Assembly: GCA_008632985.1 (NCBI GenBank)
Contig: QPGO01000103.1
Coordinates: 186,001 to 250,000 of the forward strand
DNA length: 64,000 bases
Direction of reading: 5' to 3'
DNA from: Psammoneis japonica
Taxonomy: Eukaryota
The position numbers and the translations under genes are program-made. The notes under the pieces are model-generated. The model worked only from the letters and a program-made list of their open reading frames with translations, was not told the DNA's origin and ran no database searches. Shown piece after piece: positions 14,522 through 64,000 of this stretch. Position 1 is the first letter of the stretch, and each line of letters starts with the position of its first letter.

Positions 14522-14543
14522 AGAGAGAGAGAGAGAGAGAGAG
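14522..14543 (+). repeat. (AG)n microsatellite
   Basis: Run of agagag... Confidence 0.9.
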
Positions 14544-15245
14544 CTTGCTGCTTGGTGGTGCGCAACCCTTGTGGCTCTCTTGCAGGAGCATCGTCGCCTC
14601 TGGGCTCCCCACCACTTGCAAGCTCCAGCTCGAGGTCTGGTTTTTCGTGGCTCACGCTGCAGGGCTGTGGCCACAAGTGAGGAGAAGGCAGCGAGCAGAA
14701 GGCAGCGAGCGACAGAGAGCCATCGTCTTGTGATTGCCAATTTTTGTCAACAGCTTCGACCTTTGTTGCTGCTTCATCCCATTAATCATGTGTTCAATCT
14801 TTACTATTTATAAAAACGCACAGTAAATAAATAATGAGCACGTGCTGTCCTTTAATAAAAATAAAAAGGATTAAATGTCAATATACGAGGAATTAATTAG
14901 GAATATCAAAATTTGTAATGACCAGAGTTTTCTTGAATCATGTTTTCGCATATGCTTACCTTCATCATCGAACATGAGGAAATATACACATTGAAGAGGC
15001 GGAGAAAAGAGACAGTGAACACCAACATGCGATAATAGCTGCTGCTTCGCGTTGTTGCTTGATGCGTTTTACATCGCGGTTTACAACAGGAAAAGGGAAC
15101 GAAACGAGCTCTGCAGTAACTACTTTCACGTCTTTCTTAGGCCTTCTTTGACTATTAGACCAATCTGCTTTCAATCGCATTGAGTTTCAGGGCTTTTCTC
15201 CCTCATCCGCATCGTTCGACTGACTAACAACAGCCACATAGGCTG

Positions 15246-21200: not shown

Positions 21201-22110
21201 AAATTGTCTCTGCATGGTGGCAGCATTGCTTTCAACTTGAGTGGGTGTTTGTGGTGTTTGCAGAAGACTCAAGAGAGCTTGGTTGCTGCATGGCAGAGCA
21301 TGGTGATCACAGCAGCCACTGGGAGCCAGAAAGCTGTGTGTCAGGCAGTGCATCCAGAGAAATCAAGCAACAACATCTCAGGTCTCACAGGGAAGTTGGA
21401 ACATGGGGTTGTGCAAAATGCATCATCTTGTGAGAATTTTGTAACCCTGCACCATGGCATGCATGTTCAACATTGTTCAATGGACTTTTGGACACTCAAG
21501 ATTTGTTTTCTGCACAGCAGCACAGTGCCTGTTTGCATGCAGAAGATGGCAAATTCTGTGATTCAATGATCGTCGAGGAAGCCCACAGATGATTTGTGAT
21601 TCAAGAATCTTGTCAACTTGCTCTGAGTGAATGACAAGAACACAAAGGGCTTTCTGGCTGAAGAGCAATGAAAAAAAAAACTGGGTGGAATCAAGAGGAA
21701 CACACTGCCATGGACTGGGTCTTCAGAGGGGGGTTGAGAATCAGAAGAGGAGAGAGTCAGCTCCATGGCATCACCCACATCAAGGTGTGCTTCCCACAAT
21801 TTCCATGTTTGGAAAAGTTGGCAAAGAATGGCAAATCATTTGGTCACAGGCCGAACCATGGAAGTGCTTTGTGGATCAACCACCACCGCTTGGGCAAGGA
21901 CCACGAGAGGGCATCTGGGACAAAAGTTTCCAAATTTTGCCTACAGTCCTGGTCCGAATCACACCGATGGATGCAGAAAAAGGAGACGCAGATCCCAACA
22001 CCTCACTCTTGCCTGGAACTTGACAGGCACACCCAAATAACAACTAGGGGTCTACTCAATTGGGTCTTTCTTCGGATACAGTCCTCACAGCTACAAAGCA
22101 GATCTAACTG

Positions 22111-24041: not shown

Positions 24042-24358
24042 TGTTGACTCTGCTTTTGCGTTGGTGTAGAACACAAATAATAATGCGAATTGGAACTGAT
24101 GTGGAATTTGACATCTTAGATCCTAAAGATTTATTTATTATTGCCACGTGGTAAAGTCGTTAAGTGTAAAAAGGACTTTTAGTTATATAAAAATAGTGAT
24201 CGGCAGGCGACATAAAGGTGCGACATAGAATATTTAACAGAAAAATACCTTCAACATGGACCGTTTAAAATTTTTTATGCATTCACGAGAGCAAAGGAAA
24301 AGACCCAGAAAATTACTCGGACGACGTAGTACAGTACAGTAGCAATTATGGTAACACC

Positions 24359-26277
24359 ATGGCGGCGAAAACCTCTCTCCTCCTTCTTCTGGATGGCATA
24401 TTGTCGCAAGCAGATGATCAGATTCGAGATGCTTTGACCCAAATTATGGACAATATCGAAAGAAACGAAGCAGTGGTTTCACCACAGGCAAAATCCATCG
24501 TTATGAGTTTTGACCCGGCTGCCGTCGGAGTTGGTGGTTCGCTTTCCAATCTTCCTGATGTAGTCAGAGTACTGTTGGAAGCTGACCCTCAAACAGCATC
24601 TACTCCTAGTGACCTGGATGGATCTCTACCTCTTCACTTTGCTGCCTCACTGGGTGATGTGCGGGTAGCTTCTATTTTGATAGCAAAGGTAAGTACTTTT
24701 CTGAAGCTGTATTTGAGTCTCCACAGCGTAGTTCGCGTCGGACAAACACACGCTGTCTTACGCCACACTTGTAGTACCCCCGAGCTACATCAACCCCAAA
24801 TAACAAGGGTAAGTTGGCCCTTCACTACGCCGCTCGGGAAGGCCGGGACGAAATGGTATCCTACTTGCTTCGAGTTGATCCAGCCACCGCCAGGATGGAT
24901 TCATGCAAAAACAAGCTACCCCTTCATTTTGCCGCTGGAGAAGGATATGTCCATGTCGTGCGTCATTTGCTTCACGCTTATCCAGAGGGCGCATCCGTTC
25001 CGAGCTCCAAGGGTAAAATGCCTCTTCACTTTGCTGCTCGTTGGGGGCACATTCAGATTGCAAAGGATTTGCTTGCCTTGTACCCCGACGGAGTAAAGGC
25101 TCTGGACTGGGAAGGTTCTCTTCCTCTTCATGATGCGGCACGAGAAGGCCAAACCGCGATGGCTGAGCTGCTGGTGGAGCGCTATTGTCAGGGCTTGAGT
25201 ACGGCAAACCTAAGAGGCGAGATTCCGTTGTTTCCTGCTGTACGGAGTAACAATGTCGAATTGGTTGTCTCCTTGCTACAGGCGTGGCCCAGGGGAGGCA
25301 AGCAAATTTTGGCCAGTGCTTCTGCGGATGACAACGTTGAGAATTGGGATAACAATATCCTGGAGTTGTGCCTGCGGGGAGCGGTAGGAAATTTCTACAA
25401 TTGTTCAATTGGTGGAAGAAAACTGGCTCCCGCCCTCTGCCACTGCGGCCAAGTTTTTACTTCATCTTCTCGGCAGCATGTCAATGGCGACAATGCTTCG
25501 GATGGACCTTGTCAGTGCCACAGTGAGAACAAATTGAAGGTAGTTGGCGTCGGCGAGAACTCTGTAAGAGCTTATGCAGCAGGTGACACCTACGCACCTC
25601 ACGTGTTGGATGAAAAGAAGCCATCTGCTGATGAAAGGGTGGTTCCGGATGTTGCACACCTACCTGATGATTCACTTGTCCTGATTCGACGTTCCAAGTC
25701 TCCAATGCTTGAGTTGAAGACAAGCAAAAAGAGAGGTTTATCAACGGACAGTGGAGGAAAGAAACGATTGCGTTCCGGAAGCCTTTCTGGCACGTCCAGT
25801 GTTGCGCTAAGGTTGCAGGAGTTACCCCGCGAATTCTATCATCTCCATGCCGCAATCGAATGTGGCGCTACCTCTCACGTCCTCCGGTGCGTACTACAGA
25901 GGCATGCAAGCCTAGTTACCAAGGTTGATTGCTTTGGACAGCTGCCTCTTCATATTGCTGCCGCTCATAGCCGCGATCCAGAAGTGATTGACGTTGTCTT
26001 GGAGGAGATATTGCGAGTATATCCACAGGCTACCTATATACGCAACCACTTTCGTCAGTTGCCATTGCACGTTGCTCTCTGTTCCAATGCAGACTTTCGG
26101 CTTATAGAAGCCCTGGTTAAGGCCAATCCATCATCGGGTTTCGAACGTTGCCGGACGAACGATAAGTTCATTGACTCGCTACCACTGCAAATGGCAACCG
26201 AATCCGGTTGTGATCTTAGCACTACCTATCTTTTGCTCCGTGGCGACCCCAATTTTGTTCAGAAATTTGTTGGCTGA
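24359..26277 (+). CDS. Ankyrin-repeat protein, intron 24689-24774
   Basis: Multiple G.LPLH.AA repeats. The GTAAGT...TGTAG intron joins ...ILIAK to YPRATSTPNNKGKLALHYAAREG in frame. Confidence 0.9.
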
Positions 26278-26635
26278 CCCCCGGGGGGGAGGGCTACACC
26301 TGGCTACATTGGTTCGTCTTCGAGTGAATATTTAACGCTAGTAGCTACTGCTATGCATGATATTCATTTAGGCGATTGCGTCACTAGAGGTGGTCACGTT
26401 ACATACAAAAGCACTGTTACCGGTAGAGTTTCTTTGTTTGGCAGCCCCGCCGTAATGAAAGGTTTCCTCGGTTAGGCGGTCAGTCCCCGGCGAGTTTCTT
26501 TCTGACTGCTGATGCTGCTCCTCCTCCTTTTTGACTGCCCCACTTACGACGTCCTATGCTGAAAGGGCCGGATGAGTTACGGCATGTGTGACAGCTGGGC
26601 ATGTGTGGATGCGTGGTTAAAAGCTCCCCTGTTTC

Positions 26636-26742: not shown

Positions 26743-27796
26743 GATCATTGGGGAGCTTTTCCAATCTCCATTCTTGTCATGCTGAGGCAGGGGCGGGCAC
26801 AGCTTGCAACCAGTGGTTGTTGGGGTCAACATCAAGATTGTTCAAAACATTTTCTCATGAATGACAAGTCCATCAGCAACTCAAATTCAAAATGGCACCC
26901 CGCCCCCTCTGATTGACAATGAAGGATCTGTGTCATGGGGCCATCATTTTGTTGTTGCACACTTGAGGCATGGAAGAATCCTTGTCAGCCAAACAAGTCT
27001 GAGCAACATCAAAATCTACGTGACTCCATTGAGGGTTGGGAATGAATCAGGTGAATCAAATGGGGCAGCAGGAGCAAGACACCAGCACCAGCAGAAGAAT
27101 TGCCACATCAGAAGAACCCAACTCAGTCACTTGATCAGGGATGACAGCACCTCAATTGGAAAGACCAGTGGCTGCATCACCAGAGTGGGTTGTTTGTTTG
27201 TTGCAACATGTGGGAGCAGGAGCATCAGAGGATTTTTAGCAACACCTTGCTCCAAGATGCATTCTCTCCTCCGTTGGAGGCATGGAGCTGTTGTTAGAAA
27301 TTTGGAGGCATCATGGCTCATCATTGGGAAAAGCACTGCTCTGATTGAGAAACAAAGAAAAATCCAATGTGTGGCTGATGTTGCAACACAAATGATGAAC
27401 CAGTGCTCCATGGCAAGTGCACCCCACAAAGAGGATGCTCTTCAATGTCTTGGAACATGGACAAAAATGCACAATGTTGGGTGGGTTTGACAGATGACTG
27501 GGCAGAGAGCAACAACTGCCAAAGAAGCAAAACCCAGCTGATGGGGCAGTTTGTCAGCTGTTCTGGCCAATCAGATTGTTGGGTGGAGAGCAACCACACA
27601 AGCACACAAGAAAGCCCAGCTGACAGGCAAGTTGTTCATCTGTGATTGTTTGATTGAGATTGTGCCACTGGCTGTGAGTTGGCATGCACAATCAGACAAA
27701 TTGAGCAACAATTTAAAAAGGTTGAATTTTCCCAACTGGCACGTCAGAAAATCTCAGCCATCAGCACCAGACTTGGCTGTTCATCCTCAAGTTGCA

Positions 27797-29240
27797 CTGT
27801 GGCAAAACTGCTCTCCTTCTTCTTTTGGACAGCAGATGACAAAAATTCAAGATGCCTTAACCCAGATTGTTGCCCCAAGAAAGAAATGGGTGGCAGTGTT
27901 GCCACAGACAAAATTCATTCTTGTCACATGAGTTTTGAGCCAGCTGCCTTCATCTGAATTGTGGGTTTGCTCTCCAATCTTCTTCCTGATGTGATGCAGC
28001 CAGTTCATTGTTGGAGGCTGGCCCTCAGCCAAGCTGCATCCTGCCCCAGTGCCCTGAGTCAATCTCCACCTTTTTGCTTTGCTGCCTCACTTGGTGACAT
28101 GTGGGCAGCTTTCATTTGAGAGAAAAGGCAAGCACTTGTTCTGAAGCTGTGTTTGAGTCTCCACAGCACAGTTCATGCCCAACAAATGCACTTTGTCTCA
28201 CTTCACACTTTCTCATCACTCCTGAGCTGCATCAACCCCTTCACTGCACCACTCATGAAGGCCATGATGAAATGGCACCTTGCTTGCTTTGAGTTGATCC
28301 AGCCACTGCCATGTTGGATTCTCATGCAAAAAGCAAGTTGCCCCTTCATTTTGCTGCTGGAGAAGGAAGCCTCAATCTTGTGCATGATCATTTGCTCAGT
28401 GCTTGTTGAGAGGGTGGTGCATCCACTCTGAGCTCCATGGGCAAACTGCCTCTTTATTTTCTCTGCTCATTGGGGCAAATTTGCAGATTGCAGAGGATTT
28501 TCTCACCTTTTGCCCCATCTGAGCAAATGCCCTGGACTGGGGAGGCTCTCTTGTCTTCCTCGTGCTGTTTTGCACACTGAGCAGATGATTTGTGTGTTCT
28601 GATCTGTTGTTCAAAGCCTCCATCCCTTGAGCCAAAGATGGCTGAGCAACAAAAGAGGTTTGTCATGAGATGGTCAAAGAAAGAAATGGCTGCATTCTGG
28701 CTGCCTTTCTGGCTCTTCCCGTGTTGTGGTGCTGAGGTTAGAGAAGCAGCAGCCTTGCAAATTCAAGTCATCTTTGTGCCACTGCCAAACATGGTGCAAC
28801 CTCTCATGTGCTCTGCTGCACATTGCAGAGGTGTCCAAGCCAAGTTGCTGATGTTGATTGCTTTGGAGGACAGCTTCTGCCGCTTCACATTGCAGCCACT
28901 TGCAGCTGTGGCACAAAAGTGCTGGTTGCCGTTGTTTCAGAGGAGACACTGCAAGAGAGCGCACAGGCCACCAGCAGTGCACTTTGCTTGCTCTCATGCT
29001 GCAATGCAAACTTTTGGCTTGTTGCAGAAGTCCTGGAAAAGGCCAGCCCACATTGTCTGGTTTCAAGTGTTGTTGGACAAATGTCCCGCCACTGCAAATG
29101 ATGGCTTTGCCAAATGTGGTTGTAAGATCTCTTGGCACTGCCTGTCATTTTTCTCTGTGGTGGCCCCCACATTTTGTTCAGAAGTTTGTCAGCTGATCCT
29201 CATGAAAAAAAAAAACAGCTGCACCTGGCTGTGATGGCTT
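27797..29240 (+). pseudogene. Heavily mutated copy of the ankyrin gene at 24359-26277
   Basis: Colinear similarity from the 5' end (gcaaaactgctctccttcttctt) through the intron to the 3' end (tttgttcagaagtttg), with internal deletions. TpA and CpG are converted to CpA/TpG and the donor GTAAGT has become GCAAGC. Confidence 0.88.
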
Positions 29241-29987
29241 TGTCTTTGAGTGTGCAACCCTGGCACCATCACATTGTGCAGCAGCACGCTTTTTCCACAG
29301 AGCAGCTTTTTTGTTTGGCAGCCCGCGTTGTTGGACACCCTTTGTGAAAGTTTTCTCATTTTTTTGGTTCCTGGAAATGGCTCCAGGATGACACAAGCAC
29401 TCAAGGCTCAAGTCATTTTGGAAGTTGCACCTGGTGAAAAATTGCTTCAACGGTGGTGTCACAAAGACAGAGCGGCCAAACACAGCAGCCATCATCAACG
29501 AGTCTTTGAGCCCCACATTTGTTCATGACTTGAGCTTGCAATCCAGTGAGTTCATCCATCTGTCCATCTTCTGACCATCACTTTGGCATTGTGCACAGGC
29601 TCAAGGTTTTTTTTGGGGGGAGGGGGGGATTTTGCAACAAACTGGGCAGCCCCACCACTCTCGTCACCGTGACCCGAGCCCACCCGAGCGGCAGATGAGT
29701 TGCCATTGCCAATGCTCCACTGCACCATCCATCAACACGATGGCAATGCCGCAACATCAGCACAATGATGGCAAACCAATTGAATTTTGAATTGCGATGA
29801 GGTTGTGCCGTCCGTGCTGCAGGGGTGCCGGTGCGCGCCAAGTGCGCACTGCCATGCTGCATTGGAAAGCTCAGGTCTCGGGAGGTCTCACTTTTTACTT
29901 TTTACTCTCACCTCATCACTCATCACCTCGCAAAGAAGTCAACGAAGCCCCGCCCAGCCAGCTGTACCTTGTACCTCGCAGACGATT

Positions 29988-34378: not shown

Positions 34379-35284
34379 ATGACAATCAAGCCAACTCGCT
34401 TGTCTACCAAAGCGGGCTTTTCAAGAATGCAGGACCAATGGCGTTGGTTCAGCATATTCCTTGGGGTCTCTCTCGTCGCGATTGTACGAACCTACTCGTT
34501 CATCACTTATCTTGAAGGTCAGCAAGCTCAAGTAGAACGACTTCTCAGCGAGGTAACTCCTGCTGCTTCTCCTACCTTTGGACTGGTCGTTGTCCATTGC
34601 AGACGAGATCCCGAAATCACCTGGATCAACGACGTCCCAAGTGATTGGAAGCTGACAGTTTACGAAACGTGTGGAGAAAGTGTCTCCAGAAGTAGCGTAC
34701 CTTTTGAGAATAGAGGATCAGAAGAATGCACCGGATACTTCCAATACATCCTAGAAAACTACGACGACTTACCCGACATCAACGTATTCTTGCAGGACGA
34801 TGCGTTGCTTCCTTACAGTGACAATAAAAGAGGTTTCTGGCATACGCCTTTTCGAACAATAGCGGCACTCGAGAATGCAACTTTGCCACATCTGCGTCAA
34901 AGTCACGGTTTTTTACATTATGGAAAGGAAGATTTTGGATTCAAGCATCAAGTTGCGACTGAAGAGTCGTACAGTGGCTTTTACCAAAAGGAAATTTGGG
35001 ACGACCTGAACTTGCCTTACACGCATGATACGGTATCAAAGACAAGACCAAAAGCGAGCTTTGCCGTTCATCGAGACCGAATTCTCGCCAACAGTCGAGA
35101 GGTGTATGCTACTCTACAGCAAAAGATTTTTTCTTCCAACAGGGACCATGCTCGCAGGAGATGCTGTGCTCTCGAACATTCATGGCATGTCGTGTTTGGG
35201 GATCCTGCAATCATGCCTCAAACTTCCACATTAGATCAGTATTTGAAAGAAGTCGGATTCAGAGATGGAGACATGATTGGGTGA
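34379..35284 (+). CDS. DUF3431-like type II membrane protein, paralog 1
   Basis: N-terminal TM segment, FENRGSEECTGYFQYILENYDDLPDINVFLQDD, FAVHRDRIL and ALEHSWHVVFG. Confidence 0.8.
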   Translation: MTIKPTRLSTKAGFSRMQDQWRWFSIFLGVSLVAIVRTYSFITYLEGQQAQVERLLSEVTPAASPTFGLVVVHCRRDPEITWINDVPSDWKLTVYETCGESVSRSSVPFENRGSEECTGYFQYILENYDDLPDINVFLQDDALLPYSDNKRGFWHTPFRTIAALENATLPHLRQSHGFLHYGKEDFGFKHQVATEESYSGFYQKEIWDDLNLPYTHDTVSKTRPKASFAVHRDRILANSREVYATLQQKIFSSNRDHARRRCCALEHSWHVVFGDPAIMPQTSTLDQYLKEVGFRDGDMIG

Positions 35285-35927
35285 TAGATGGTAATTAATA
35301 AACGGATTTGGGAGCCGCGAAGGGTTACGACATTGTAGTCACAATTTGGGTTTTAGCATGTGTAGCATCTCAGTTGCAATGTTACAAACACCGCAATCAC
35401 AACCAAGACCTCTTCACTTCTTGTTTCCGACATCCAAATTCATGTATGTACTCTACTACTCTCCAGAGAGTGTAGAGTGCAGTAGAGCAGCAGCTTTCTA
35501 CTGTGTTGTGCCATACGGTAAACTCAATTAGAAATACGAGTGCCGGCATGTCTTCACGAGGACCAGGATTGGAGTTTTTTTGATTGAGCACGGTGTCGCT
35601 CTGTGTACACTCTCTAGAGAGTAGGCTCTACTCTCTAGCTAGGGCTGCAGCTACTAGCTAAAAAGTTGACTACGTACCGAATACCTACTCTACTAGGCTC
35701 AGGCCTATGGCAACCGGTAAGCTCTAGCTAGAGAGGGCCCTACGGATCTACCTACTACAGTAGTTGCTGCTTTAGCTACTACGCTAGCTAATACCGTACT
35801 CTTAGCTAAGCTCGAGAGTGATAACGCATCTTTTAGGAGTTGGCTGCTGAGTACATGGACCTACATAAGATCCGTTTAGACTACCGGTAGTGTAACGCTC
35901 ACTACGCGCAGAATAAACGGTTGTCAG

Positions 35928-36584
35928 GAATAAACAGGCGTCAGATGAAGCATGGACAGACCGTAAAATGTATGGGAACTTTCTCGTAGATTCTACGAGA
36001 CAAACGGGCGATAGACAGACAAATGCGACAGACGAAGTCGATTTCCGTCGTCCCCGTGCTTTTTGTACGGCATTCGATGCTGACAATGGCGTGCCGCCGG
36101 TGACGCTNNNNNNNNNNNNNNNNNNNNNNNNNNNNNNNNNNNNNNNNNNNNNNNNNNNNNNNNNNNNNNNNNNNNNNNNNNNNNNNNNNNNNNNNNNNNN
36201 NNNNNNNNNNNNNNNNNNNNNNNNNNNNNNNNNNNNNNNNNNNNNNNNNNNNNNNNNNNNNNNNNNNNNNNNNNNNNNNNNNNNNNNNNNNNNNNNNNNN
36301 NNNNNNNNNNNNNNNNNNNNNNNNNNNNNNNNNNNNNNNNNNNNNNNNNNNNNNNNNNNNNNNNNNNNNNNNNNNNNNNNNNNNNNNNNNNNNNNNNNNN
36401 NNNNNNNNNNNNNNNNNNNNNNNNNNNNNNNNNNNNNNNNNNNNNNNNNNNNNNNNNNNNNNNNNNNNNNNNNNNNNNNNNNNNNNNNNNNNNNNNNNNN
36501 NNNNTTTTTTTAAATTGTACACATTTCTACATAATTTTTTTACCGGTAAACGCTAGGAAACTGGCGTCTGACGCCTGTTTATTC
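35928..36584. mobile_element. Putative MITE/TIR element spanning an assembly gap
   Basis: Perfect 18-bp inverted repeat: gaataaacaggcgtcaga (35928-35945) and tctgacgcctgtttattc (36567-36584). No clear TSD. Confidence 0.55.
36108..36503. other. Assembly gap (N run)
   Basis: Run of n. Confidence 1.
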
Positions 36585-36828
36585 TTTCTGTAGCTCACCT
36601 GCGAACTGTAGACTTTCGCGCCGATAACCCGAGAACTCTTCGCGCCGTGAATCGTGAGCCGTGAGCGCTTTTGGCCCTACCTGGGCCCTACCGGCGCGAG
36701 CGTGGAGTGTGCAGTGTTTCGACCATGCCATGGTTTTGCCTTTTGCCTCCGCATCACCTTCCCGTCGCCTCTCACCAACACACCGTAGCAGAAAATGGCC
36801 ACAACGACTTTCTCCTCCTCGCTCTGTT

Positions 36829-37680
36829 ATGGCGAGCTTCTCTAAAATGCGCGACCAGTGGCGTTGGTTCGTCCTCATCTTTGCGGTTGTCGTGGTTGAG
36901 CTAAATTATTCATTCATCACTTTCTTCCTTAGTCAACAAGCGCAAGTAGATGGAGGTTTGAGGGGCCTTTCTCCTACCTTTGGACTGGTCGTTGTTCACT
37001 GTAGCCGAACTCCAGAAATCACGTGGCTCAACGACGTTCCCAGCGACTGGAAACTGACCGTGTACGAAACGTGTGGACATAACATTTCCAGAGGTAGTGT
37101 ACCTTTTGAGAATAGAGGACTAGAAGAATGCACCGGATATTTCCAATATATCCTCGACAACTACAACGATTTGCCTGATATTAACGTATTTCTACAAGAC
37201 GATGCGTTGCTTCCTTACAGTGACGATGAAAAAGGTCTTTGGCACACTCCCTTTCGAACAATAGCTGCGCTTGAGAATGCGACTTCGCCGCTTGTAAGTA
37301 GAAGTCACGGTTTCTTACATTATGGGAAGGAAGATTATAGATATAAGGTTGCAACTGAAGATGTATACAGTGGTTTTTACCAGAAGGAAATTTGGGATGA
37401 CCTCAGTTTGTCTTACACCAATGAAACAGAATCTAGGACAAGACCGAAAGCATGCTTTGCTGTTCATCGAGATCGAATTCTCGCCAAAAGTCGAGAGGTT
37501 TATGCCACTCTACAGCAAAAGATTTTTTCCTCGAACAGGGACCATGCCCGCAGGCGATGTTGCGCTCTCGAACAATCCTGGCATGTCGTGTTTGGGGAAC
37601 CTGCAATCATGCCGCAAACTTCCACGTTGGATCAGTATTTGAAAGAAATTGGATTCAGGGATGGGGATATGATTGGGTGA
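36829..37680 (+). CDS. DUF3431-like protein, tandem paralog 2
   Basis: Highly similar to 34379-35284, with near-identical C-terminus ...STLDQYLKEIGFRDGDMIG. Confidence 0.8.
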   Translation: MASFSKMRDQWRWFVLIFAVVVVELNYSFITFFLSQQAQVDGGLRGLSPTFGLVVVHCSRTPEITWLNDVPSDWKLTVYETCGHNISRGSVPFENRGLEECTGYFQYILDNYNDLPDINVFLQDDALLPYSDDEKGLWHTPFRTIAALENATSPLVSRSHGFLHYGKEDYRYKVATEDVYSGFYQKEIWDDLSLSYTNETESRTRPKACFAVHRDRILAKSREVYATLQQKIFSSNRDHARRRCCALEQSWHVVFGEPAIMPQTSTLDQYLKEIGFRDGDMIG

Positions 37681-38153
37681 TACGTTAAACGCCAGGCGTG
37701 AGACGGATGTAATCTAGTATTTGCGCAGCATTCGGACACGAGTTAGAGGTTGTGAGTAAATCTTAACCGGGAGTTCTATTAGTCGAAACTATCCCATCAC
37801 CGGGCCGCATCGTGAAGTCTTGCGAATCAGAACGCCCCTTGTTCTTGACCTGCGGTGGCTGCCATTTCCTGAAGGAATTTTGCCACAGGATCCGGGTCAA
37901 TCATAATCTGTCTTTTCTCACACGACGGTTTCTCACCATCTTAGCCGAAGCCATTTTGGACTTTCATCCCTCTGAAACTGAAAACAACATTTTTCACTTT
38001 TTCGTTCAAATTTGGATTTTAATCAACAGTGTTCTTTATTATAATAGTTACCACTGAATATATATAATAACGCTAAAATAACCGTTGCGAGGAAGGGATG
38101 GAAATTCAATTCTCACAATTCTTCTTCGGTCATCAAAAGAGACGCCGACGCCA

Positions 38154-45756: not shown

Positions 45757-47003
45757 ATGAGTTTGCCACGAAGAATACGTTACGATATCATGAGAGCCAT
45801 CACCATGGACGCGCCGTGCACCGCGGTTCAGGCCTTGATGGATGGGCGCAATAACATTGGAAACTTTATTGATTCCACGGATCCAGAATTGGGCGTGACG
45901 CCGCTCATGGCGTGTGCGTTTCGTCAAGATGGTAGCGAAACCTTGCGAGTAGTACGGTATTTGGTTGGATTGGGTGCTGGCCTCGACACGCCGGACAGGT
46001 CCGGTCCGGGAGTCACGCCTTTAATCATGGCGGCGCAAGAAGGAAAACCGATTCTCCTTCAGTATCTGGTAGACGAGGGTGCCAATATTCACACGAGACC
46101 ACAAAATTCAAACACTCGCGCCATTGGATTTGCTTCTCAAAACGACCACGCCGAGTGTGTCGCAATCTTGGCAAAGGCGGCACGCCAGCAAGGTATTTCA
46201 ACGCAAGTGTTGGATTGCGTCAACAACAAGGGCAGAACGTCAGCGTATGTCGCGGTGGATCGGTGTCGTCCTACAGTCATGGGCGTTTTGGCCATGGCGG
46301 GTGCCGATTTAAGACGAGCGTGTCCCGTCTATTTTACCATTCATGACGAACACTTGGTGGATCCAAGTCCGGATCTTGTGGGACATTATTCACTCAATGC
46401 TGCGGTGCGTTCGTACGTGGCGTACTCGTGCGCACAGTGTGGCAAGTGTTTGCCCGAGGGCCAGTTGAAGAGTTGTGGACAATGCAACATGGCACGGTAC
46501 TGTAGCGGAGATTGTCAAAACAGAATTGGCCCATGCACAAGAAATGCTGCAAGAAGTTACGCCGAGGCCAAGACCTCATGCTGGACACTGTCCGTCAATT
46601 GCCACCTCCTCCAACAGAGCCGTTGGGGTTCCAAGACGGCTTTGGTCAAGACGATGAAGAGAGCGAAAGCGACGACTACAATCGCGACGATCATCCCGTG
46701 TGGGAGTACAACAGCGGCGGACCAGGCAATCCCATTTGGTGCCGGTACCCGGCACGGATTGAAGAAAGCCTGGAATCCTTGTTGGAAGGCGGATCGCCGC
46801 GATACATGTACAGGCCAAACGATCCGGAAGCGGACGGCATGAGTGAAAGGGAAATGAGCGTAAACCCACCGTCACAGGTTGCGACACGTTATGTGTACTA
46901 TTGTGACATGCTGGAGAGAGAGATTTACACCGGAGCGGCGCGGAGTGTCAGGAGAAACGGTGATTGCACACAACCCAATGTCAAACCCGATATCATGTTT
47001 TAA
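45757..47003 (+). CDS. Ankyrin + MYND zinc-finger protein with a possible WWE-like C-terminus; frameshift near 46520
   Basis: GVTPL ankyrin repeats and CAQC...CGQC...YCSGDCQ continuing as KQNWPMHKKCC in another frame. VWEY...W.RYP..IEESLE. Confidence 0.8.
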
Positions 47004-48818
47004 AATCTGTACTACTTCAGGGCTGAGCGACGGCATTACAGAGTAGAACATGATTTCTTGCAAACACTCAAAATTGATAAGAGTAGATTGCCTACGTTAT
47101 CTATTTCTTTGGTTCCTTTTCTTTTCCGTCGTTCTCTTTCATGGGGGGGATTGAATCTCTGCCACAGTGCCATTTGTGGACACAAGAGTCATCATCTTTG
47201 AGGTGCAGACGAAACAACAGGCACAAGGGGGCATCAACGGACCCACCACTGTAAAACTTGTCTGAACAGAGTGAAACAAAAACACCCCTTCTTCGTTGGT
47301 CAAAAGCCGTTTGGAATCCCTTCCATCTCATTGGCCAGTTCTGGCTCATCATGGTGTGATCATGTGATGCTGTGAATTTACTTGGACAACATCAGTTTCT
47401 CTGCTGGTTTTGGTCTTTGCTTCAAACACCTGCCATGTTACACCAAATGCAACAATTGTTGTTCCTGATGACATTTGCTCCTTGCATGCTGTCACATGAT
47501 TGATGCAGCCACTCCAGAAGCCACAGTTCATGCAGTCTTGGCAAGGCAGGCAGTGGCTTCCAAGTGTGTTGTGGGTTGGGCAGCACTCTCCCATTGTGAA
47601 AACCACCAGCTCTTGGCCACAGCAATGAGTGTGACTTTTTCACCAATGACACCCAGCAGCCCATCTCAGAAAACCTTTCCACCATCTGCAATGCACCCTG
47701 GCACAGCAATGAAGCCCTTGTCATCAGGGAGTCATCCCTCCTGTTGGCATCACCATGACAGACTCGCAGAGCTCCTTTTGGGAGCAAAAATCTCCACGTG
47801 CCCCTCCTCATCTCTCAGCCTCTCAGCTTTTTGCATTCTTTGGGTGCACTTTGTGACACTTGACTGGATCAGCCAACAGTCATTTTGGGTGCAATGTGCA
47901 AGAATGGCACTTAAATCCAGTGCACATGCTGTCAGCTGTCACCAAATTGTGGGGGTGGAGTCACTTGGAGCCTCCCGCACAGCTTCCTCTGGAGACAGGA
48001 AGAGCTGCTGTGCTTGTTGTTGCACTGACGGCAGTGTGCTGTCACTTCCTTGATCCATGATGTCAGCTTGACAGGCACCATCACTTGTTGCAGATGCAAT
48101 GGCACTGCACATGGGGAGTTTTGCCACTGTCTTGTTCTTGGCGCAAGTTGTGTTGTTGCAAGCAGCTGCTGCTGCGCACACACCATGGTTGACACCTGAG
48201 GGCAAGGAGCAGGCACCCACTCCTGCCATTTTTGCTGGCAACAACAATTTTGTTTGGACCCATTGAGTCAAAGAGATGGGGGGGGCACATGCAGCACAAA
48301 AGGGGCAGGACAGCTTGGAGAGAGTGACTTCAAGACAGCAAAAATCGCCACAGCTTGTTCACACTGATGAAACGAGGATTTCATCACCACCGCTGCACTC
48401 ACTGGGGCTCACCACCCAAAGAATTCTCAGAGCATTTATGATGTCACTGAGCAGTTGACCATTGAAGGCCGAGGATGGGCTTTTGTCAAGAGCCTTGCAA
48501 TCGGACTGCTCTCAGAGGATGCAGCAGAGATGCTGTACCTCATGGAAATGACGGCGGGCGGGGCGGCGGGCGCGGGAGGCGCCTTTTCTTAATGCGCGCC
48601 ATCGCGACCATGATGATGCGACGAGCGACGACGATGATTCGCGCAGATGGCTGTCATCTACTGTACTCTCGCATTTCGTATCATGGAAAGGTAAACAAGG
48701 CGTAGGCAAGCACAAGACACACTGATCAAGTGAAAAGGCAAGGCAAGGAAAGCGCTGTTTGGAAAAAAGGCACGTGACAAAAGCAAGGGATAAAAAGAGC
48801 CAGAGAAGTGAGGAAATA

Positions 48819-55198: not shown

Positions 55199-58100
55199 GG
55201 CTTCTTCTACTTTATCACAGAATACAACGTATGATAACCGTCAATCCGAACCGGATGTGGCAGTGGAGGCGTTGTGGTTTGTTAGCGGCTGCCGTGGATG
55301 AAAAGTGAGACATGTCGCGACTCAGCGATAATTTTTCTGGTCTCGCTTCTTGTTAAGAATTTCCTCAATTATGGATATGACCAAAAAGCTATGAATTTTG
55401 AAAAATGTCCTCGCCTATTTTGTTTATGGACACATTTTCTGTTCAAAGGTCACCTCACTAATTAGCGATTGTTAATCTATATTCACACTTGAAAAGGTTT
55501 AAAAATTTGCTATTAAATACTGATGTTTACGCTTTCTACTGAACGATGTATGTGTATCATCGCTCACATCGATCATATTCAACGATACTAATCCCTCAAC
55601 GGAATCAAAAGCAGTTGAATAATTTTGTTACATATACCAGTATTAACATTATAAAATATCACAACGGAGACCAAATATGTTTGTAGTTAAACAACGCTGT
55701 ATGTTCGAAGACGGGACTGCGCTCAGTGTTGTACGTACATAGGGCCCCATGTGTCAAAGCACGATGGCTTTTTGCCCGCCCGTTTGATGAATCTTGGGAT
55801 TCGTTTTTCTTCTGTTGGAGAAGGAGGGAACCATCCAAGTCCACACTTTGGTGGCGATGAAGAGACCAACACCACCAATGCATTCGTGCTCTCTGTTGGT
55901 TTGCATGTTTCTGAAAACAGTTGTCATCATCTGCTGCTTGTTGCACTTCTCCTCCCAGAGCTTGGCTCACTTTGAAAAATGAAAGCCGAGAAGCAATGAG
56001 AGCAAACACACTCTGGCTGGACAGGCCACCAGCCACAGACACCCAGCTGTGCATTGTGCCAGTGCAGGCCAAGTGCAATGAGTGCACCTCTCTTTCCTCT
56101 TCTCCACTTTTTGACAAGAGGAACCTTGTCGTCACAAGGGCTGTGCTGCTGAGAAAGTGTGTCTTGCCCTCATCTCGAGCCACAGCTGGCAAGAAATTGG
56201 GGGGGGGGGGGGGGTGCTCTCTCCTGTTTTGCAGCATCAACATGCAATTCTAAAAAGAAGTTGCTCAAGCTCAGGGTCCACCCCTGCCTCAACGGGTTGA
56301 GTGCTCGCAACCTTGCCTGCTGCAAGCGCAGCTTGATGAAAGGGTGCGACTTCGCTGCCAAAATTTGCTGCAGTGTTTCGCTCTTTTTTGGCAGTCTTGA
56401 GAGCACATTCTTTGTGTTCCCAACACTTGCTGCAGTGCAAAACAGGGTCTTTGCAAGTGCTGGGCTCTGCTGCAGCCTGGACTTTCTCGCGCTTTTGTTG
56501 AATCGGGGCACTTTTCAAAAATGAGGACCATGTGGCAGGTCACCAGCATTTGCCAATTTTGCACCACGTGCCCACCTTCTCCAGCTCTGCAGTGGCACAG
56601 CACATTGAAGAATCTTCCTGTGGCAGGATTTGAGAACAGGGTCCCAGTTGTGCATGATTGTTTGTTGCGCGCTGCAGTCAGTTTTCACATGCAGGCTCAT
56701 GTGCTGTTGTTTCTGTCCTCTGTTCATGTGTGGGCCATGTGGTTTTGCTTTTGAGCCAGGCAGCTCTAGCAAGAAACAAACTGCAGCAATGGTTGTCATG
56801 ACATGATGCAAAGTAAGAAAGCACCTCCAGCTGGCTTGCTTGCAGAGGTTTTCAACTTGCTGCTCTGCTCGTTCCTTGCAACAAGCAGCCCACAGTGCCC
56901 AGCTGCCAGCTGCAGGCAAGAATGTGCTGGCACAGCTCTGTGGATGTGGGATGGGAAGCTCAGCACTCAACTGCAAATGGGGCAGTGCAGCCAGATGGCC
57001 TCTGATTTGTGAGTGGGCTGAGCGCTCACAAGTCTGAACTCGAGCCAAGATTCAGGTCAAGCTCATTTTCCAAACCCAGCCAAGCTTTTTGCCTTGTCCC
57101 GCCTGGGTTCTGTCTCAACTCCACTTCTTTCACCATGGTTCTTGCTGGGCAACATTTTGATGGTGGGTTTCCATCATGTGGCTGGCACTGTTTTGGCTCA
57201 ATCTGCTGACAGCTCTCTCTCCACTTGCTTGTTGGGACAAGGAACAATTTTGACAAAAGTCAGAAAGCACATTTTTGCAAGCTGCAGTCAGCTTGTCATG
57301 AAAAAGCAAAGGGGATCACATGGCCTTGACAAGGCATGGCAACAATGTGTGGGTTCATCATTTTGTCAAACAAAGGCAAAGTGCCAGGACAGTGAAAACC
57401 CTGCAAATGTCATTGGGGAGATTCATCATGGGGCCGGTGCAGGGCCATGTTGAATCATCAAGAAATGGCCAGCAGCCAACAAAAATGCTAGAATGCAATC
57501 CCTGTTTGGAAAGGTTGCCTTGCAAACAGTGTGTTGGCTCCTGGTTTGGAAAGTTCTCCCAGCACCAGGGAAGCAAAACAAGTGATGGCAACCTTGACCA
57601 TTGTTGAAGACAGAGAATGAGCTGCTGATTTTCAGAATGAAATGGTCTGGTTGACATGTGAAACTTCAGGTGATTCGCTGATCTGCACAGCCAGTGCATG
57701 GTGGGTGGTCATCAGGAGATGAGTTGCCAATGGATTTGACAGCCTTGGAACAATTGCACGAACTGGTTGTTGTGTTTTGTCTTCAATGTCATTGTGAAAA
57801 TGATCAATTTGTGCCTCTGCTGGCAAATTTTTGCTGGCCCTCAACCCGTTTTGTTTTCTTGACAATGCATGATGGCCGTGAAGTCATGGAAATGCACTGG
57901 AGCAATGATTTTTGAGAGCATCCTTGACCCCAGTTGAAGATGCTTGTGCTCAATGATGACACCAGACAAGAAACCTCAAAATCAGTCAACTCTTGTCTGG
58001 GGCAAAGGTGGGGCTGGGAAAACTGTGACAACAAAGATTGTTTGGCATTGTTTGGTGACTCTGTCTCAACAATCAAATTGATCATTGCAAGTTTCCATTT

Positions 58101-58298
58101 GAGCACCAGTCTTGCAGTCCAACCCATCTTGGAATCTTTTGAAAATGCCTGCATGGTCTCAAATGTCAATTCATCTTGCTTTGGAAAATTCATTGATGTT
58201 TGCTTTGACACAAATGGCTCCTTGGTGTTGGCTTCAGTGGAAACTCATCTGCTGGAAAAAGTCAGTCTCAGCTCACAGGCACTGGGAGAATGCAGCTG

Positions 58299-58472
58299 CC
58301 ACATTTTCTGCAAAATTCTTGCTGTGCTTCCACAAAGTTCAAACAAAACATGGGCGTTGCTGGTGCCACACCAGAAGAATTTGTGATGACCCCACATTTT
58401 CTGCAAAATTCTTGCTGCGCTTCCACAAGAGTTCAAACACAACATGGGCATTGCTGGTGCCACACCAGAAGA
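58299..58472 (+). repeat. ~94-bp tandem duplication
   Basis: cacattttctgcaaaattcttgctg.gcttccacaa...catgggc.ttgctggtgccacaccagaaga occurs twice. Confidence 0.85.
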
Positions 58473-58689
58473 TTTTGTTGTGACGGCCGCATCTAAAACC
58501 TTTGACCGCAGGGAATGGAGTTGTGGATGAAGACACTTTTTGCGAGTTGTGAACTGCCTTGGATGCCATTGGATTTGAGCCAGATGAACAAATGGATTTG
58601 TTTGCAATTGTTTGTGGCTTCTTGCATGCTTCCAATTTGACATTTGCAGATTTGGGTTCTGATGCCTCTGCCCTTGACATGGAGAATCA

Positions 58690-59330
58690 GTGAGATGGCA
58701 ACATCAAAATGAGCAAAACGCTGTCAAGTCTTGCAAGGTTGCAACATGACATCATGGGGGTGGAGATGGCAGCAACATGTGCAAAAATGTTGTGGCAGAC
58801 ATCAAGCAGTGGTTTTTGCAGCAATGAAAGCACCCCAATCTTTGACATTTTGCCTGCAAGATTCTGGATGAGAGCAACATTGTGCCAAGATGGATCTCCA
58901 TGCCAGATGCCCCATTTGAAGAATCTTCCCATTGTTTGCTCAAGCAGCTGCGTGACTGCATCACAACTCACATGTTGACAGATGTTTTCTCCAACAAGTC
59001 AGGCATTGCCATTGTGTCACCCCCACCCCATTTGCCTGAGAGGACAAATGAGAGATCCAACTGCTGCAGGCCCTTTCCCCCAGTGCTCCACAGCCTTCTT
59101 TGTGACTGCCTTGGTTCCAAGAACTTCCAAGAAATTGTTGTTTTCATTCAAGACATGCTGTGACTTCAAGCATTTGAGCACACAGAGGTTGCCATTTTCT
59201 TGCTCATTGCTTGAAACACCCTTCCATGACGGTGATGCCCAAGTTCACTCAACAAGTGCAATTTCTTGTTGTTTGACTTTGGCATTTGGCCCTTGCAAAA
59301 GTCAGGATTGTGTTGGAGTTTTTTGCACCG
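58690..59330 (-). pseudogene. Degenerate protein-kinase-like fragment
   Basis: ELGHHRHGRVFQA (Gly-loop-like) and GIWHGDPSWHNVAL (HGDxxxxN catalytic-loop-like), with stops and frameshifts. Confidence 0.4.
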
Positions 59331-59764
59331 TCCTGGTGCATCTTTTCAAACAATGGAGAGATGATCACATTGATGGGCAGACATGTGGGCTGCAGGAGTT
59401 TGCTCCATTTCTCCCAGCACCCAAGCCAGGACTTTCAATGCAACCAGCAGTCCATGTGACATGACTGCCAATGCATGGAGAGCACTTGGTTCTCATCTTT
59501 GTTGTCCACATCAGCATTGCCACAGGGTTGGGGCAAAGGAGGAGGTGAGTTGCAAATTTTTGTGCATCCACACCCACTCCTTCTTGTCCTTTTTTGTGGC
59601 ATGACAAATGGGTTTGTTGCACCTGAGGCAGATGGACAGGGTGAGCTCATCTTGTCTGCCATTTCTTGAAGCTCATTTGTCCCTCCTGCTGTGTCCTCCC
59701 CATGGGGAACCCATCTGAAGAAATGCCAGGAGTCACATGTGGACAGGATTCTACAGACATTTTT

Positions 59765-62700
59765 CGTTCTGGGTGGGCATCGCCGGATCCATGTCAGCAT
59801 TCCTGTCTGTCTGCCCGGCGGAATCAACACCCACAGATGCAAGCAAGAACATGATTTGAATTCAAATGGGTCGCTGCCCTGTCAGTTGGCTGCGGTCAGC
59901 ATCGCCTGCCCATCTCATCTGATTTCCAATTGTGTTGTTGCGCTGTCATTCATCTGGGTCCGTCGCTTCAGTTCTTTCAATCTAACAACCATGCGACCAT
60001 GTCTGGTGCCCCACTCCCTGTCGACGTTGTAGATGATGGCTTGCATGATGACAATGATGACAATGACAAGAACGCAGGAACAGCTTTCAATGACAGTGAG
60101 TCTCACAATGATGCAATTGTGCAAGAAGCAGAGCCACCACCTGTTGATGTGTGCCATGCATTGGACATCCTTGACACTGTCTTTTGTGGTCTTGACGATG
60201 ATTGGTGCACTCCCATGATGTTTCCCGTCAATGTCGTCCATTCGAAAGAGGTTCCACCGTCTCTTTTCATGGATGCCAACATCACCGAGTGCCTGGGCAA
60301 AGATGGGCCTGGCAGTGTGCTTCATTGACATGTGCACGTCTGCTTTGACACAACGAGGTGTCCCCCACTGCCCGCTGCTGCAAAGCCATTCTCCAAGGAT
60401 GACACGAGTTGCGCAGCTTTGTTGCAGGACTTCCACCAATGTGCTGCAAGCAATGGGTTCGAGGCAATTTCCAATGGCAATGGCCGCATTGTCTGTTCCT
60501 GCTTTCTGACGCATTGTCATAAACCCGAACAACGTGACCCAACAGCTCCGGCCACCTCCTGTCGGAAAACTTCCCTTCATGATGATCGCCGTCGGAACAA
60601 TCGCAAACAAGGCCACAAGAATCATCCTCGACGACAGCAGACATCCAAGGCACCAAATGTTGAGGACACATGTGGTTGGAACATTTGCATCCAAGCCAAT
60701 GCTTTTGGCTGTTTCTTCAAGTGTGGCACTGGGTGTGGCTTTCATTGCAACCACCACAAACGACTTCCTGATGAAATCCAGCAGAAGATTCGTCACCTAA
60801 ATTCATCCACCACATTGTCCATGAAGCGCATGAGAAAGGGACGCTTGGGGGCTGGCCATGTGCGCAAACACATTCTCGCCAACAAGGATCACTTTCTGTC
60901 CAGGTCGCAGGTTCGTCGCGTCATGCAAAAGGCGGATCAGGAACAGTTGACCCCATTCTCACCACCCTCCGAAAATGCTGATTTGGATGATGGCATCTTG
61001 GAGCTGCAGAAGTTCTTTCAGAGTCGAGAAGACGTGGAACACTCTGCACTGGCAAGTGGAGCCAATGCTGTGCAGACCCCCACCCAAGAAAGAAACCTGC
61101 ATTTCCAGTCTTCATTGCTTTTCAATGAAGCTTGCGTTGATGGAGAAAGGGAGATTCAGAACCTCGAGGAACTTTGTTCCGAGGTTGTTGACCAGTGCAG
61201 GCGTGAGAGGGAAGCGGCGCAGCTTGGTCCTGATGACAACCTGTTCATTGGTGCTGCATGGACACTCAAGGGCGAGAAACGATTGTTTCGCCAAATGCCA
61301 CATGTGATCAAAGTGGACGTAACGTCTCACACAAACAATGAGAAACGGCCTTGCCTGACTTTCTCCACCCGTGCGCCAGATGGGTCTCACTTTGTTTTCC
61401 TGCAAATCCATCTTCCAGATCAAACACAGGGGACGTTTCGGTGGGCATTTCATGTTGCACTGCCCACTCTACTTGATCAAGCATCAATCCAGCAAATCAA
61501 GCTTGCGTTGACAGATGGAGACTCTCAAGAAATCTGCGAGTTGCGCAGTGCCATTCAAGTCTACATGCCCGACGTCTTCCAAGGCCGTTGTGGCTGGCAC
61601 ATTGTGGAAAAGGGATGGTTGCGTCACTGCCCTGGTGAGAGCTGTGTGTCTCCAGGGCAGAAGCATGAGACCCACAAGCATTTCGTCGCTGCAGTCAAAG
61701 CCTGGCTTCATTCATTCATGCACCCGGGTGGTTGCGAGAATGAAGATGAACTCAAGGTCTCCAAGTCATTGCTCATCATGTTTCTGCATTCCCCAAGAGT
61801 TCTCCAGACATGCGATGGCAATGAGTCCACTGTGCAGAGAATCATTGCCTTCATCCGAAATGAGGTGTTTGCATGGGAGCGGCATCATGCCTGTCACCTC
61901 AAGAAATTCATTCGTCACTACGAGGAAGCAAACAATTCAAGTCATGAGGGAACCAACAATGGGATGAAGAACCATTCTGCCCCTGTGCTGCCCTCACAGA
62001 ATTTAGCCACCAGCGCCATCAACTTCGCCATGCAATCCGACGTGAAGGTTGCCGAGTCACACACTGAAAGCAACGGCATGGCCACAACAAAATGTCTCTG
62101 GTCCACCTGAGAAGGTGCCAAGGAGTGCAAGAGACTGCACACCTCGTCACGAGAAGACAAAGCACATCCTGGCAAGGGGACCGGCAACGACAGGGAGGTC
62201 GTGGGTGGACTCAGTTCTACTTCTGCACGTGATGCAGTCCTTGAGCCACTGGCACAAGCCGCCGAGGTTCTGTCAAACCAGCAAGTGGTGGAGAAGTCAA
62301 CAGGGAGGTCATGGGTGGACTCGGTTCTACTTCTACATGCGATGCAGTCCTCGAGCCACCAGCACGAGCCGCCGAGCATTCTGTCACACCAGCAAGTGGT
62401 GGAGAAGTCAACAGGGAGGTTGTGGGTGGACTCGGCTCTACTTCTACATGCGATGTAGTCCTCGAGCCACCAGCATGAGCCGTCGAGCGTTCTGTCACAC
62501 CAGCAAGTGGTGGAGAAGTCAACAGGGAGGTCGTGGGTTGACTGGGTTCCACTTCTGCACGCGATGCAGTCCTCGAGCCACCAGCACGAGCCGCCGAGCG
62601 TTCCATCACACCAGCAAGTGGTGGAGAAGTCAACAGGGAGGTCGTGGGTGGACTCGGTTCTACAATCGGCGGAAGTGGAACTCGGTGTGGTGACTCCGCC

Positions 62701-63328
62701 AGGCGAAAATGGTTTGGAGTGAAAAAAGAACCGAAAACAGCAGAGAGACTGCTTTTGACACCGGCAAAAAAACTTGACACAACCGAATTGGTTTGTGGAG
62801 TGCTCTCTCTCTTGGCACGATGACGGCGACGGTGCTTCCTCTTGCCCTGACTCTTCAAACAGGAGCGTTCGTGGCGTTTGCGGTGGCAACGCAAGCTGTT
62901 GCTGCAAGACTCCAATCCGTCTTGATTTCCTCTTTTCGGCTGGGAAAAACAACAAGCACAGTGTGAGAGACTGCAAAATGATGGCACAAAAGGGGAGAAG
63001 CACAAAAGGGGAGAACAAGCCATGCAGCAATGCTTGCGGGGTTGGGTGGCTTCATCGTTGGATGAACAACGTCGTTTGCAAAACAACATTGTGCGTGCGA
63101 TGTGTGCAAAAGTGAAGTGAGGAGATGGAGGAATTCAAATTTTCTTCCAAATGCCGGTCATTGAGAATTTCGAACAATGACTTTGCAACGGTTTTTACGA
63201 TCATTCCCACACGAGGGTAAACACAAAGAGGATTGGCCTGTTCGCGCTGAAGTTGTCAACAAGCAAACTGACAACAACAGGCTCACTTGACGCACGTGAC
63301 GTGGATCCGGCGATGCCCACCCAGAACG
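59765..63328 (+). mobile_element. Mutator-like (MULE) transposon with a decayed transposase and inverted repeats
   Basis: ORF 60332-62110 has KVDVTSHTNNEKRP, LTDGDSQE and CGWHIV (MULE D..D..CxxH). A 32-bp inverted repeat at 59765-59796 / 63297-63328 has one mismatch. Confidence 0.85.
62191..62663 (+). repeat. 111-bp tandem repeat, ~4.3 units, inside the MULE
   Basis: cagggagg starts at 62191, 62301, 62412, 62523 and 62634. Confidence 0.95.
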
Positions 63329-64000
63329 GCACATGGCACTCCAAGTGGAGTCATTTGATCAAGAACCCACATCACAACATTTGGGTGGTTTGCCGGGTGT
63401 GGGTCAGGTGGAACTCTCTTTGGAGGCTGCTTGATTTCTGTTGCACTGCAAATGTCATTTGCTGTGATTGCAAATGTCCCCAATGTCCACAGGCTCAAGT
63501 TCAAGAAATGCACAGGCTGGCATGAAGGGCCGCCACGTGAGTCCCATTTTGTGAATGTGGGTTGGCCTGCGCGTCTTTTTGCTGTCTTTTCTACGTGTGT
63601 TTAAGTGCTGAAACTACGTGCAATCTGAGAATTTCATTTCTACCTCCCAACAGGAATCACTCGGCTCTCAGAGTCATTGCGTAGAAGTTGTGTAGAAGAG
63701 CACCAGAAATGTTTGTTGTCAGTCTGTCCACCCGTCCGTGTTCGAATGCCAACTCCTCGGGAAATCAATTGAGGTGTCATCTGATCAAGGGTGCTGCTCT
63801 TCACCATCTAACACCCTTGGTCAGATGACATTTCAATTGAGTTCCCGAAAAGTCAGTGGCCCCAATCACCCTCTCGTATGACATTGTGTACATTTCCACA
63901 CAATTTGGCATTTTTCCTTGTGCAAAATGCCGGTTGTGACTCTTGTGACATTTTCGAATGATTCCTGTTGAACACTGAAGCGAGAGGTGTTTCTCTTGCC

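Follow-up and report, generated by a model that had tools for sequence, protein, structure and literature searches.

A 64,000-nucleotide stretch of the diatom Psammoneis japonica (contig QPGO01000103.1, positions 186,001 to 250,000; hereafter the window) raises the question of how repeats come to be stripped of the dinucleotide TpA while keeping much of their CpG, and whether the two losses stem from one process or from two. A first-pass annotation had described a Mutator-like element (MULE) and a Plavaka-like block that retain CG and have very few TA, along with four blocks that have lost both, and had proposed two processes and a two-stage clock for dating repeats, in which TA conversion saturates before CpG deamination accumulates. 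Comparison with repeat copies from the same 91.4 Mb genome makes it probable that silenced diatom repeats undergo two concurrent, separable transition processes, both ending in TG or CA. One is shown to be a TpA-specific A-to-G change that strikes either strand of each copy after insertion, prefers TAY (Y, pyrimidine) and is able to skip parts of a copy, and it would be a variant of a recently described TpA hypermutation (Mettrop et al., bioRxiv 10.64898/2026.01.13.699255). The other is shown to convert CG to TG or CA on either strand at about 15 times the background rate per target.

Observed-to-expected ratios (o/e), computed strand-symmetrically per block, bear out the contrast between the blocks. 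The MULE (59900-63330) has a TpA o/e of 0.09 and a CpG o/e of 0.66 (18 TA, 152 CG), and the Plavaka-like block (1-3200) has 0.07 and 0.70; the corresponding values are 0.05 and 0.14 at 7200-9000, 0.04 and 0.11 at 19800-21500, 0.05 and 0.08 at 26900-29300, and 0.02 and 0.13 at 56500-59700. Blocks that keep CG thus stand at 0.07-0.09 for TpA and 0.66-0.70 for CpG, against 0.02-0.05 and 0.08-0.14 in those that lost both, and all six are depleted in TA relative to the 29 kb of genic background in the window (0.59 and 0.99; Poisson P 1e-21 to 1e-50). TpG/CpA o/e is raised to 1.5-2.0 in the blocks. The four both-lost blocks hold 60 CG where base composition predicts 525. In the MULE and the Plavaka-like block together the counts are 293 and 430, a significant deficit in each (P 6e-8 and 8e-6), so that some CG has already been lost there too. 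All six blocks hold up, but the annotation had missed a third CG-keeping block (9031-12639) and both-lost sequence at 12640-14600 and about 47000-48300.

The relation between the two depletions is L-shaped and non-linear. Among the 127 tiles of 500 bp in the window, TpA o/e falls below 0.2 in 50, of which 19 have a CpG o/e of at least 0.45 and 26 one below 0.3, and no tile combines CpG below 0.3 with TpA of at least 0.3. In a repeat-enriched, non-random set of 1360 tiles (the window plus fetched loci), CpG o/e is below 0.35 in 245, 243 of which have TpA below 0.2, and 283 pair TpA below 0.2 with CpG of at least 0.6. Linear covariation of TpA and CpG, which the annotation had named as the result that would speak against it, does not occur. 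In 77 of 78 repeat copies the loss of TA is greater than that of CG. A power law (k 8.1) describes their relation with a summed squared error of 2.4, compared with 11.7 for a line through the origin, a fit that rules out linear covariation or equal rates. Two separable processes, with TA loss far ahead of CG loss, had been rightly proposed.

The direction and timing of the changes can be read from family alignments, in which columns sort into two classes, TA/TG/CA and CG/TG/CA, that hardly overlap. The most informative family is that of the long terminal repeat (LTR) element at 9031-12639, whose copies were chosen as those that best match the one in the window (28 scored of 1274 candidates; 27 of 29 rows used, after exclusion of L096b, which is divergent at 84% identity, and L099, a near-duplicate of L087). 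Its TA sites now read TG in 988 cases, CA in 755, TA in 754 and other letter pairs in 14. Two same-direction LTRs were usable at 20 of the 27 loci and lacking at the other 7; per LTR, TA survival is 0.31, CG survival is 0.89, and about 0.4% of other sites are changed. One LTR carries TG where its partner carries CA at 84 TA sites, with 79.6 expected under independence. Since the LTRs of a copy are identical at insertion and the TG and CA outcomes are independent, the changes arose after insertion. Hazards calculated from these pairs are 1.16 for a TA, 0.12 for a CG and 0.0037 for any other site, which gives a TA:CG ratio of about 10:1 and, per target base, about 150 times the background for TA and 15 times for CG. 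Of about 270 differences between LTRs, only 29 lie outside TA and CG sites (29 of 3953 other sites), so dating such a genome's repeats by raw divergence or by LTR identity gives ages several-fold too high unless these sites are masked or modeled. The target duplications of the 20 copies are exact in 17, and one differs solely by CA versus TG, which indicates that flanking DNA is also affected. In L073 the two halves of the duplication are CCACA and CCATG, as though a single TA step had been altered oppositely on each side.

Such pairs bear directly on the idea that the composition is inherited, or that it is a base-calling artefact of modified DNA, which is so improbable as to need little weight. 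Two LTRs of one copy differing as TG and CA at 84 sites rule out inheritance from TA-poor master elements, and the same context meets different outcomes in different copies. Copies with spared TA reveal a TA-rich starting state. Tyrosine codons tell the same story: the MULE transposase frame has 2 tyrosines in 593 residues, compared with 2.4-4.5% in 16 listed homologs, and it keeps none of 12 homolog-conserved tyrosines, 6 of which are now cysteine or histidine, while 16 of 23 conserved arginines remain. A myosin-head relic (57733-58741, +) keeps none of 15 aligned tyrosines, 6 being cysteine or histidine. Contigs of run X1 match the both-lost block at 55750-59760 letter for letter over 1393, 339 and 282 bases (0 differences over the 1393). 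This speaks against a base-calling artefact, although X1 may derive from the same source sample and so not be independent.

The amount of loss differs among families. Median TA loss, CG loss and change at other sites are 0.77, 0.15 and 0.010 in the 27 LTR copies, and 0.90, 0.30 and 0.017 in 31 Plavaka-like copies, again chosen as those that best match the one in the window (35 scored of 461 candidates; L148, whose states duplicate those of L143, was left out of the context, clock, power-law and singleton analyses). The window part of the Plavaka-like element has lost at least 0.81 of its TA and 0.23-0.28 of its CG at 0.006 other changes, and the window MULE, compared with the C27 copy, at least 0.76 and 0.29 at 0.005 per copy. 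Twenty copies of a miniature inverted-repeat transposable element (MITE)-like family run from 0.47 TA and 0.12 CG loss to 1.0 and 0.69, and 0.94 and 0.82 (overall 0.47-1.0 and 0-0.82). A dead copy of an ankyrin-repeat gene (27745-29355, +), polarised by the neighbouring intact gene, has lost TA entirely (0 of 60 kept, 40 having become TG or CA) and 0.92 of its CG (5 of 76 kept) at 0.19 other divergence. In the window's control, two intact DUF3431 paralogs (34412-37682, +), 22 of 33 TA and 23 of 45 CG are kept at 17% other divergence.

The CG-keeping blocks, at 0.4-0.6% other divergence per copy, are young, and the both-lost blocks are old, as follows from the 19% other divergence of the ankyrin relic and from the young LTR element nested within a both-lost block. 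The L shape thus reflects a rate difference: young copies (the MULE, the Plavaka-like element and the LTR element) have lost TA, and old relics have lost both. CG loss increases with other divergence in the LTR family (rho 0.54) and, measured by singleton divergence, in the MITE family (rho 0.66). It is no higher in LTR copies lying in both-lost DNA (correlation with the CG level of the flank: rho +0.30, p 0.16, 24 copies), which indicates that age, not neighbourhood, sets CG loss.

Separability of the two losses shows in four LTR copies (L098, L082, L091 and L095) that kept 54-84% of their TA and nevertheless lost 10-27% of their CG; L098 keeps 53 of 63 TA and has lost 21 of 78 CG. Because TA-spared copies still lose CG, the two processes can be separated. 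In all four, the spared patch takes in the 5′ LTR, the leader that follows it, or both; L091 and L095 have an affected part further on. To judge from their position, the patches are possibly active promoters. The patch in L098 (L199:1500-2700) runs on into AT-rich flank. The same copies make it very unlikely that one enzyme or silencing event strikes TA and CG at unequal efficiency, as a dual A/C deaminase might, or a RID/DNMT4-like activity in the case of CG. Most copies do fit a shared clock, CG loss is rapid, at about 15-35 times the background per target, and relatives of RID of the DNMT4 type occur in diatoms, with a function given as unknown in the accessible part of the source (PMC9998398). 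Against this stand the four copies with normal CG loss and spared TA, the absence of strand coordination at CG, and, from the available text on the rhizarian alga B. natans, the restriction of 210 of 211 changes to A>G/T>C (10.64898/2026.01.13.699255).

The two processes are concurrent and differ in rate, and are not sequential stages. Of the proposed two-stage clock, the ordering of young copies with TA lost and old copies with both lost stands; the sequence of stages does not, since CG loss is under way at incomplete TA loss, having reached 11-15% at 70-77% TA loss. For 23 heavily hit LTR copies, one shared time per copy with site-specific rates is not rejected (likelihood ratio (LR) 27.8, 22 degrees of freedom, p 0.18). 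A strict succession, in which a burst at or soon after insertion erases TA and then stops, leaving CpG to decay, is unlikely. It would account for the near-uniform TA loss (chi-square p 0.10) and variable CG loss (p 0.005) across those 23 copies, and for the front-loaded TA loss of copies that have lost the least CG. Site-to-site spread in rate accounts for this front-loading as well, TA survival in slow contexts still declines between families (0.52 in the LTR family to 0.21 in the Plavaka-like family), and TA and CG loss are correlated within families (rho 0.56, 0.58 and 0.73).

Several results weigh against two concurrent processes, or against parts of the picture drawn of them. The ten copies with CG loss below 0.1 are already at a median TA loss of 0.70, compared with 0.34 predicted by a single exponent. 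The full set of 27 LTR copies rejects a shared clock (LR 184), a failure due to the four TA-spared copies, and with 30 Plavaka-like copies the outcome is borderline (LR 53.7, 29 degrees of freedom; bootstrap maximum 55.8 in 40 runs). Within the Plavaka-like family, CG loss shows no relation to other divergence (rho about 0), and the ratio of CG loss to other loss is unequal among families. The scored copies are those that best match the window copy (28 of 1274 and 35 of 461 candidates), so their age range is narrow, and ancestral TA sites in the alignments are partly defined by the presence of TG or CA. Nesting of the MULE is unproven, as the expected 9-bp target duplication was seen neither at the ends of the window copy nor at those of the C27 copy. 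As to machinery, strand coordination of TA changes is weak (0.537 vs 0.513, p 0.011, and 0.516 vs 0.505, p 0.058), which hardly speaks for a processive enzyme working on one strand. A search of the genome with PF00383 returned nine matches in frames that resemble housekeeping deaminases, with no expansion and none tied to TpA loss, and the architecture of DNMT5 was unconfirmed at the one locus read of five candidates.

The context of TpA loss is consistent in both large families. A>G changes favour the strand that reads TAY, by 619 to 324 in the LTR family and 1226 to 641 in the Plavaka-like family. TA survival for sites with zero, one or two TAY strands is 0.52, 0.20 and 0.06 in the former and 0.21, 0.135 and 0.007 in the latter, and leftover TA in the erased blocks of the window is concentrated in TTAA, CTAA, GTAA, CTAG and CTAC. 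Adenines outside TA show a faint A>G excess in both families, about 2-3 fold more before C or T. Singleton A>G changes outside TA (4.1-4.4 per 1000) are commoner than C>T changes outside CpG (2.6-3.2), opposite to the bias normally seen. The process at TpA would be a targeted DNA adenine deamination at silenced chromatin, in which adenine becomes hypoxanthine and is read as G. TadA-type enzymes may prefer T-A-Y contexts. PMC10953296 and PMC10661471 held nothing usable on this preference. Two of the PF00383 matches are presumably one ADAT2-like and one TadA-like protein, both expected as tRNA enzymes. An improbable alternative is a modified base at TpA, with N6-methyladenine (6mA) turning into hypoxanthine or an oxidised thymine being repaired to C, which would leave the two-rate picture unchanged. 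TG and CA arise almost equally often and strands are only weakly coordinated, as a double-stranded mark would produce, and such a route would parallel the decay of 5-methylcytosine (5mC). A Tet_JBP search of the genome was without a match, but its control was also silent, so it shows little against this route.

CG changes are strand-symmetric (223 to 245 and 614 to 687) and lack strand coordination, and this process would be the decay of CG-methylated DNA. Transposable elements (TEs) of the diatom Phaeodactylum are CG-methylated by DNMT5, according to the accessible text (PMC9998398), and methylated C is described, again in accessible text, as not always hypermutable in algae (PMC11884799). 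Like the 5mC decay of methylated transposons, the CG changes yield TG/CA symmetrically, are confined to repeats and, in the LTR and MITE families, appear to grow with age, but such decay would cover the slow component only. A PF00145 search found 27 C5-methyltransferase matches, none of them tied to the process. One repeated stretch that carries a C5-methyltransferase domain (L190, L191, L192 and L196; C301 and C297 of G000) is itself TA-erased, with 98 CG/CG, 52 CG/changed and 9 TA/TA sites, and to judge by its sequence is possibly a mobile element with DNMT cargo.

The closest known system is the TpA-restricted hypermutation of integrated nucleocytoplasmic large DNA virus and virophage DNA in B. 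natans, where 211 changes were counted over 6169 TA and 3132 generations, the de novo rate is raised about 1000-fold, only some lines are active, and an ADAT-type deaminase is proposed but not shown (Mettrop et al., bioRxiv 10.64898/2026.01.13.699255; preprint available in part). As described there, B. natans resembles the diatom in TA>TG and TA>CA changes on both strands, TpA-poor and CpA/TpG-rich clusters, effects on mobile DNA (transposon domains are enriched) and uneven activity. The diatom differs from the rhizarian, with its viral insertions, in being a stramenopile host in which DNA transposons, LTR elements, MITEs and dead host-gene copies are affected. In the diatom, moreover, TpA is driven down to 0.02-0.09 o/e, TAY preference and spared patches are shown, and CpG decays in parallel, while the accessible preprint text contains no CpG component. 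The diatom rate comes from copies: at a mutation rate of 4.77e-10 for each site and generation, the value for Phaeodactylum in the accessible text (PMC6604790), 0.0037 changes correspond to no more than some 8 million generations and to a rough mean of about 1.5e-7 per TA per generation. This rough time-average lies about 70-fold below the rate implied by the B. natans counts, and such a difference would fit episodic activity. A search for published accounts of TpA loss in diatoms, which barely covered subscription journals, turned up only the B. natans preprint.

Repeat-induced point mutation (RIP) of ascomycete fungi is a second comparison. RIP is a premeiotic, RID-dependent process triggered by duplication, which changes C to T at CpA in strand-coordinated runs and enriches TpA. 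RID has been linked to DNMT4 in the accessible part of PMC9998398. Both RIP and the diatom process make dinucleotide-specific transitions, which arise separately in every repeat copy and ruin its ability to code for protein; the direction is opposite, with TpA removed and CpA/TpG made in the diatom, where C>T at CA (2.6 per 1000) is on par with other contexts and strand coordination is weak. Host-gene duplicates are also spared, in contrast to RIP. Four myosin gene copies of about 4 kb (L050, L051, L052 and L054), 98-99% identical and on different contigs, share about 140 TA/TA sites and have no TG/CA-discordant site, and homology-triggered RIP was rejected on this basis. These duplicates could be alleles or very recent copies; as they are near-identical and spared, duplication alone is not the trigger. 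The L050 copy has a mild excess of TA/TG differences (10-11). Affected are four TE families and dead host-gene copies, while intact genes and gene duplicates are spared.

A broader proposal, which we put forward tentatively, is that diatoms possess an enzymatic A-to-G genome defence, either common to them and Rhizaria or convergent with the rhizarian one, and guided by silent chromatin, not by homology. A TadA/ADAT-like deaminase acting on TAY in genomic DNA would strip a new transposon copy of most tyrosine codons at well under 1% background divergence and would be excluded from active promoters, and context classes together with CpG decay would form a multi-rate clock for each copy. What began as an oddity of composition has yielded relative rates (TA about 10 times CG, CG about 15 times background per target) and extends the mutation signature of one rhizarian alga to ordinary diatom transposons, and TAY preference, spared leader patches and spared gene duplicates offer testable handles on the mutator. 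TpA by itself is a poor clock, being saturated before 1% other divergence, strongly context-dependent and largely skipped in 4 of 27 LTR copies. CpG is the better one, and only CpG, along with slow-context TA, is usable for dating. Fast-context TA loss may serve as a sign that a copy was silenced, slow-context TA and CG would rank copies of young to middle age, and the old ones would be ranked by other divergence.

The affected sequences of the window are varied. The MULE copy proper spans 59766-63328 (+), with terminal inverted repeats (TIRs) at about 59758-59796 and 63297-63335, and is TA-erased with CG partly kept; about five further recognisable copies exist in the genome. Its label is sustained by part of a transposase frame (60329-62110, +) that matches PF10551 above the cut-off (E 3e-7) and has 30 homologs, and 111-nt tandem repeats lie at 62190-62663 (+). 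At the other end, 1-3449 (+) makes up the right-hand 3.45 kb of an element with TIRs, 7.4 kb long, that starts 3963 bases upstream of the window. It is likewise TA-erased with CG partly kept, with TIRs, a 2-bp AA target duplication and at least 30 other copies. The Plavaka label is weakly supported, as the domain PF18759 scores below the cut-off of 26.3 in the least TA-eroded copy (E 0.027, 14.1 bits).

The high-copy LTR element (9031-12639, +) has 276-nt LTRs, TG...CA ends and at least 27 other copies, and is nested inside a both-lost block with a perfect 5-bp duplication, CCATT. Its long frame, which we take to be gag-like, has no Pfam match, and no pol domain was seen in the element. In the frame (10159-12297) a 42-nt repeat recurs about 18 times, in numbers that vary among copies. 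The element's host flanks are the old both-lost blocks at 6950-9030 on the left, for which no second copy appeared among the matches listed (28 scored of 1274 candidates), and 12640-14600 on the right. A further TA-erased block occupies 18600-21900, with both dinucleotides lost from about 19300, and holds a 250-bp MITE-like element (about 19353-19600; at least 30 relatives in the genome) whose TA and CG losses are 0.92 and 0.62. The intact ankyrin-repeat gene that polarised its dead neighbour lies at 24306-26466 (+) and is normal in TA and CG, and another both-lost block lies at 46900-48300.

The old both-lost block at 55750-59760 contains the myosin-head relic and an LTR-family-like fragment (56822-57008), and no close copy of it was found in the genome. 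No continuation of the relic was found beyond the far side of the MULE, and no close intact parent, the best candidate reaching 65% nucleotide identity, so that the relic is not polarisable at the DNA level. Genome searches with two both-lost blocks returned only short matches of 67-80% identity and two terminal-repeat matches of 31-32 bases, and a Pfam scan of 27 frames from eroded blocks recovered the myosin head only. Within the block, 56951-57232 is matched by two X1 contigs of equal depth; the first is identical, while the second, either an allele or a paralog, differs at 21 positions and has 2 gaps. The window contains 398 N, with an assembly gap at about 35900-36300. It also encodes a Sec23 protein, whose best hits, among those with a name, come from diatoms. 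Between erased blocks, the low-complexity sequence at 6200-6930 forms an island rich in TA and CTAG, in which a direct repeat of 85 nt and a palindromic pair (6474-6543) occur.

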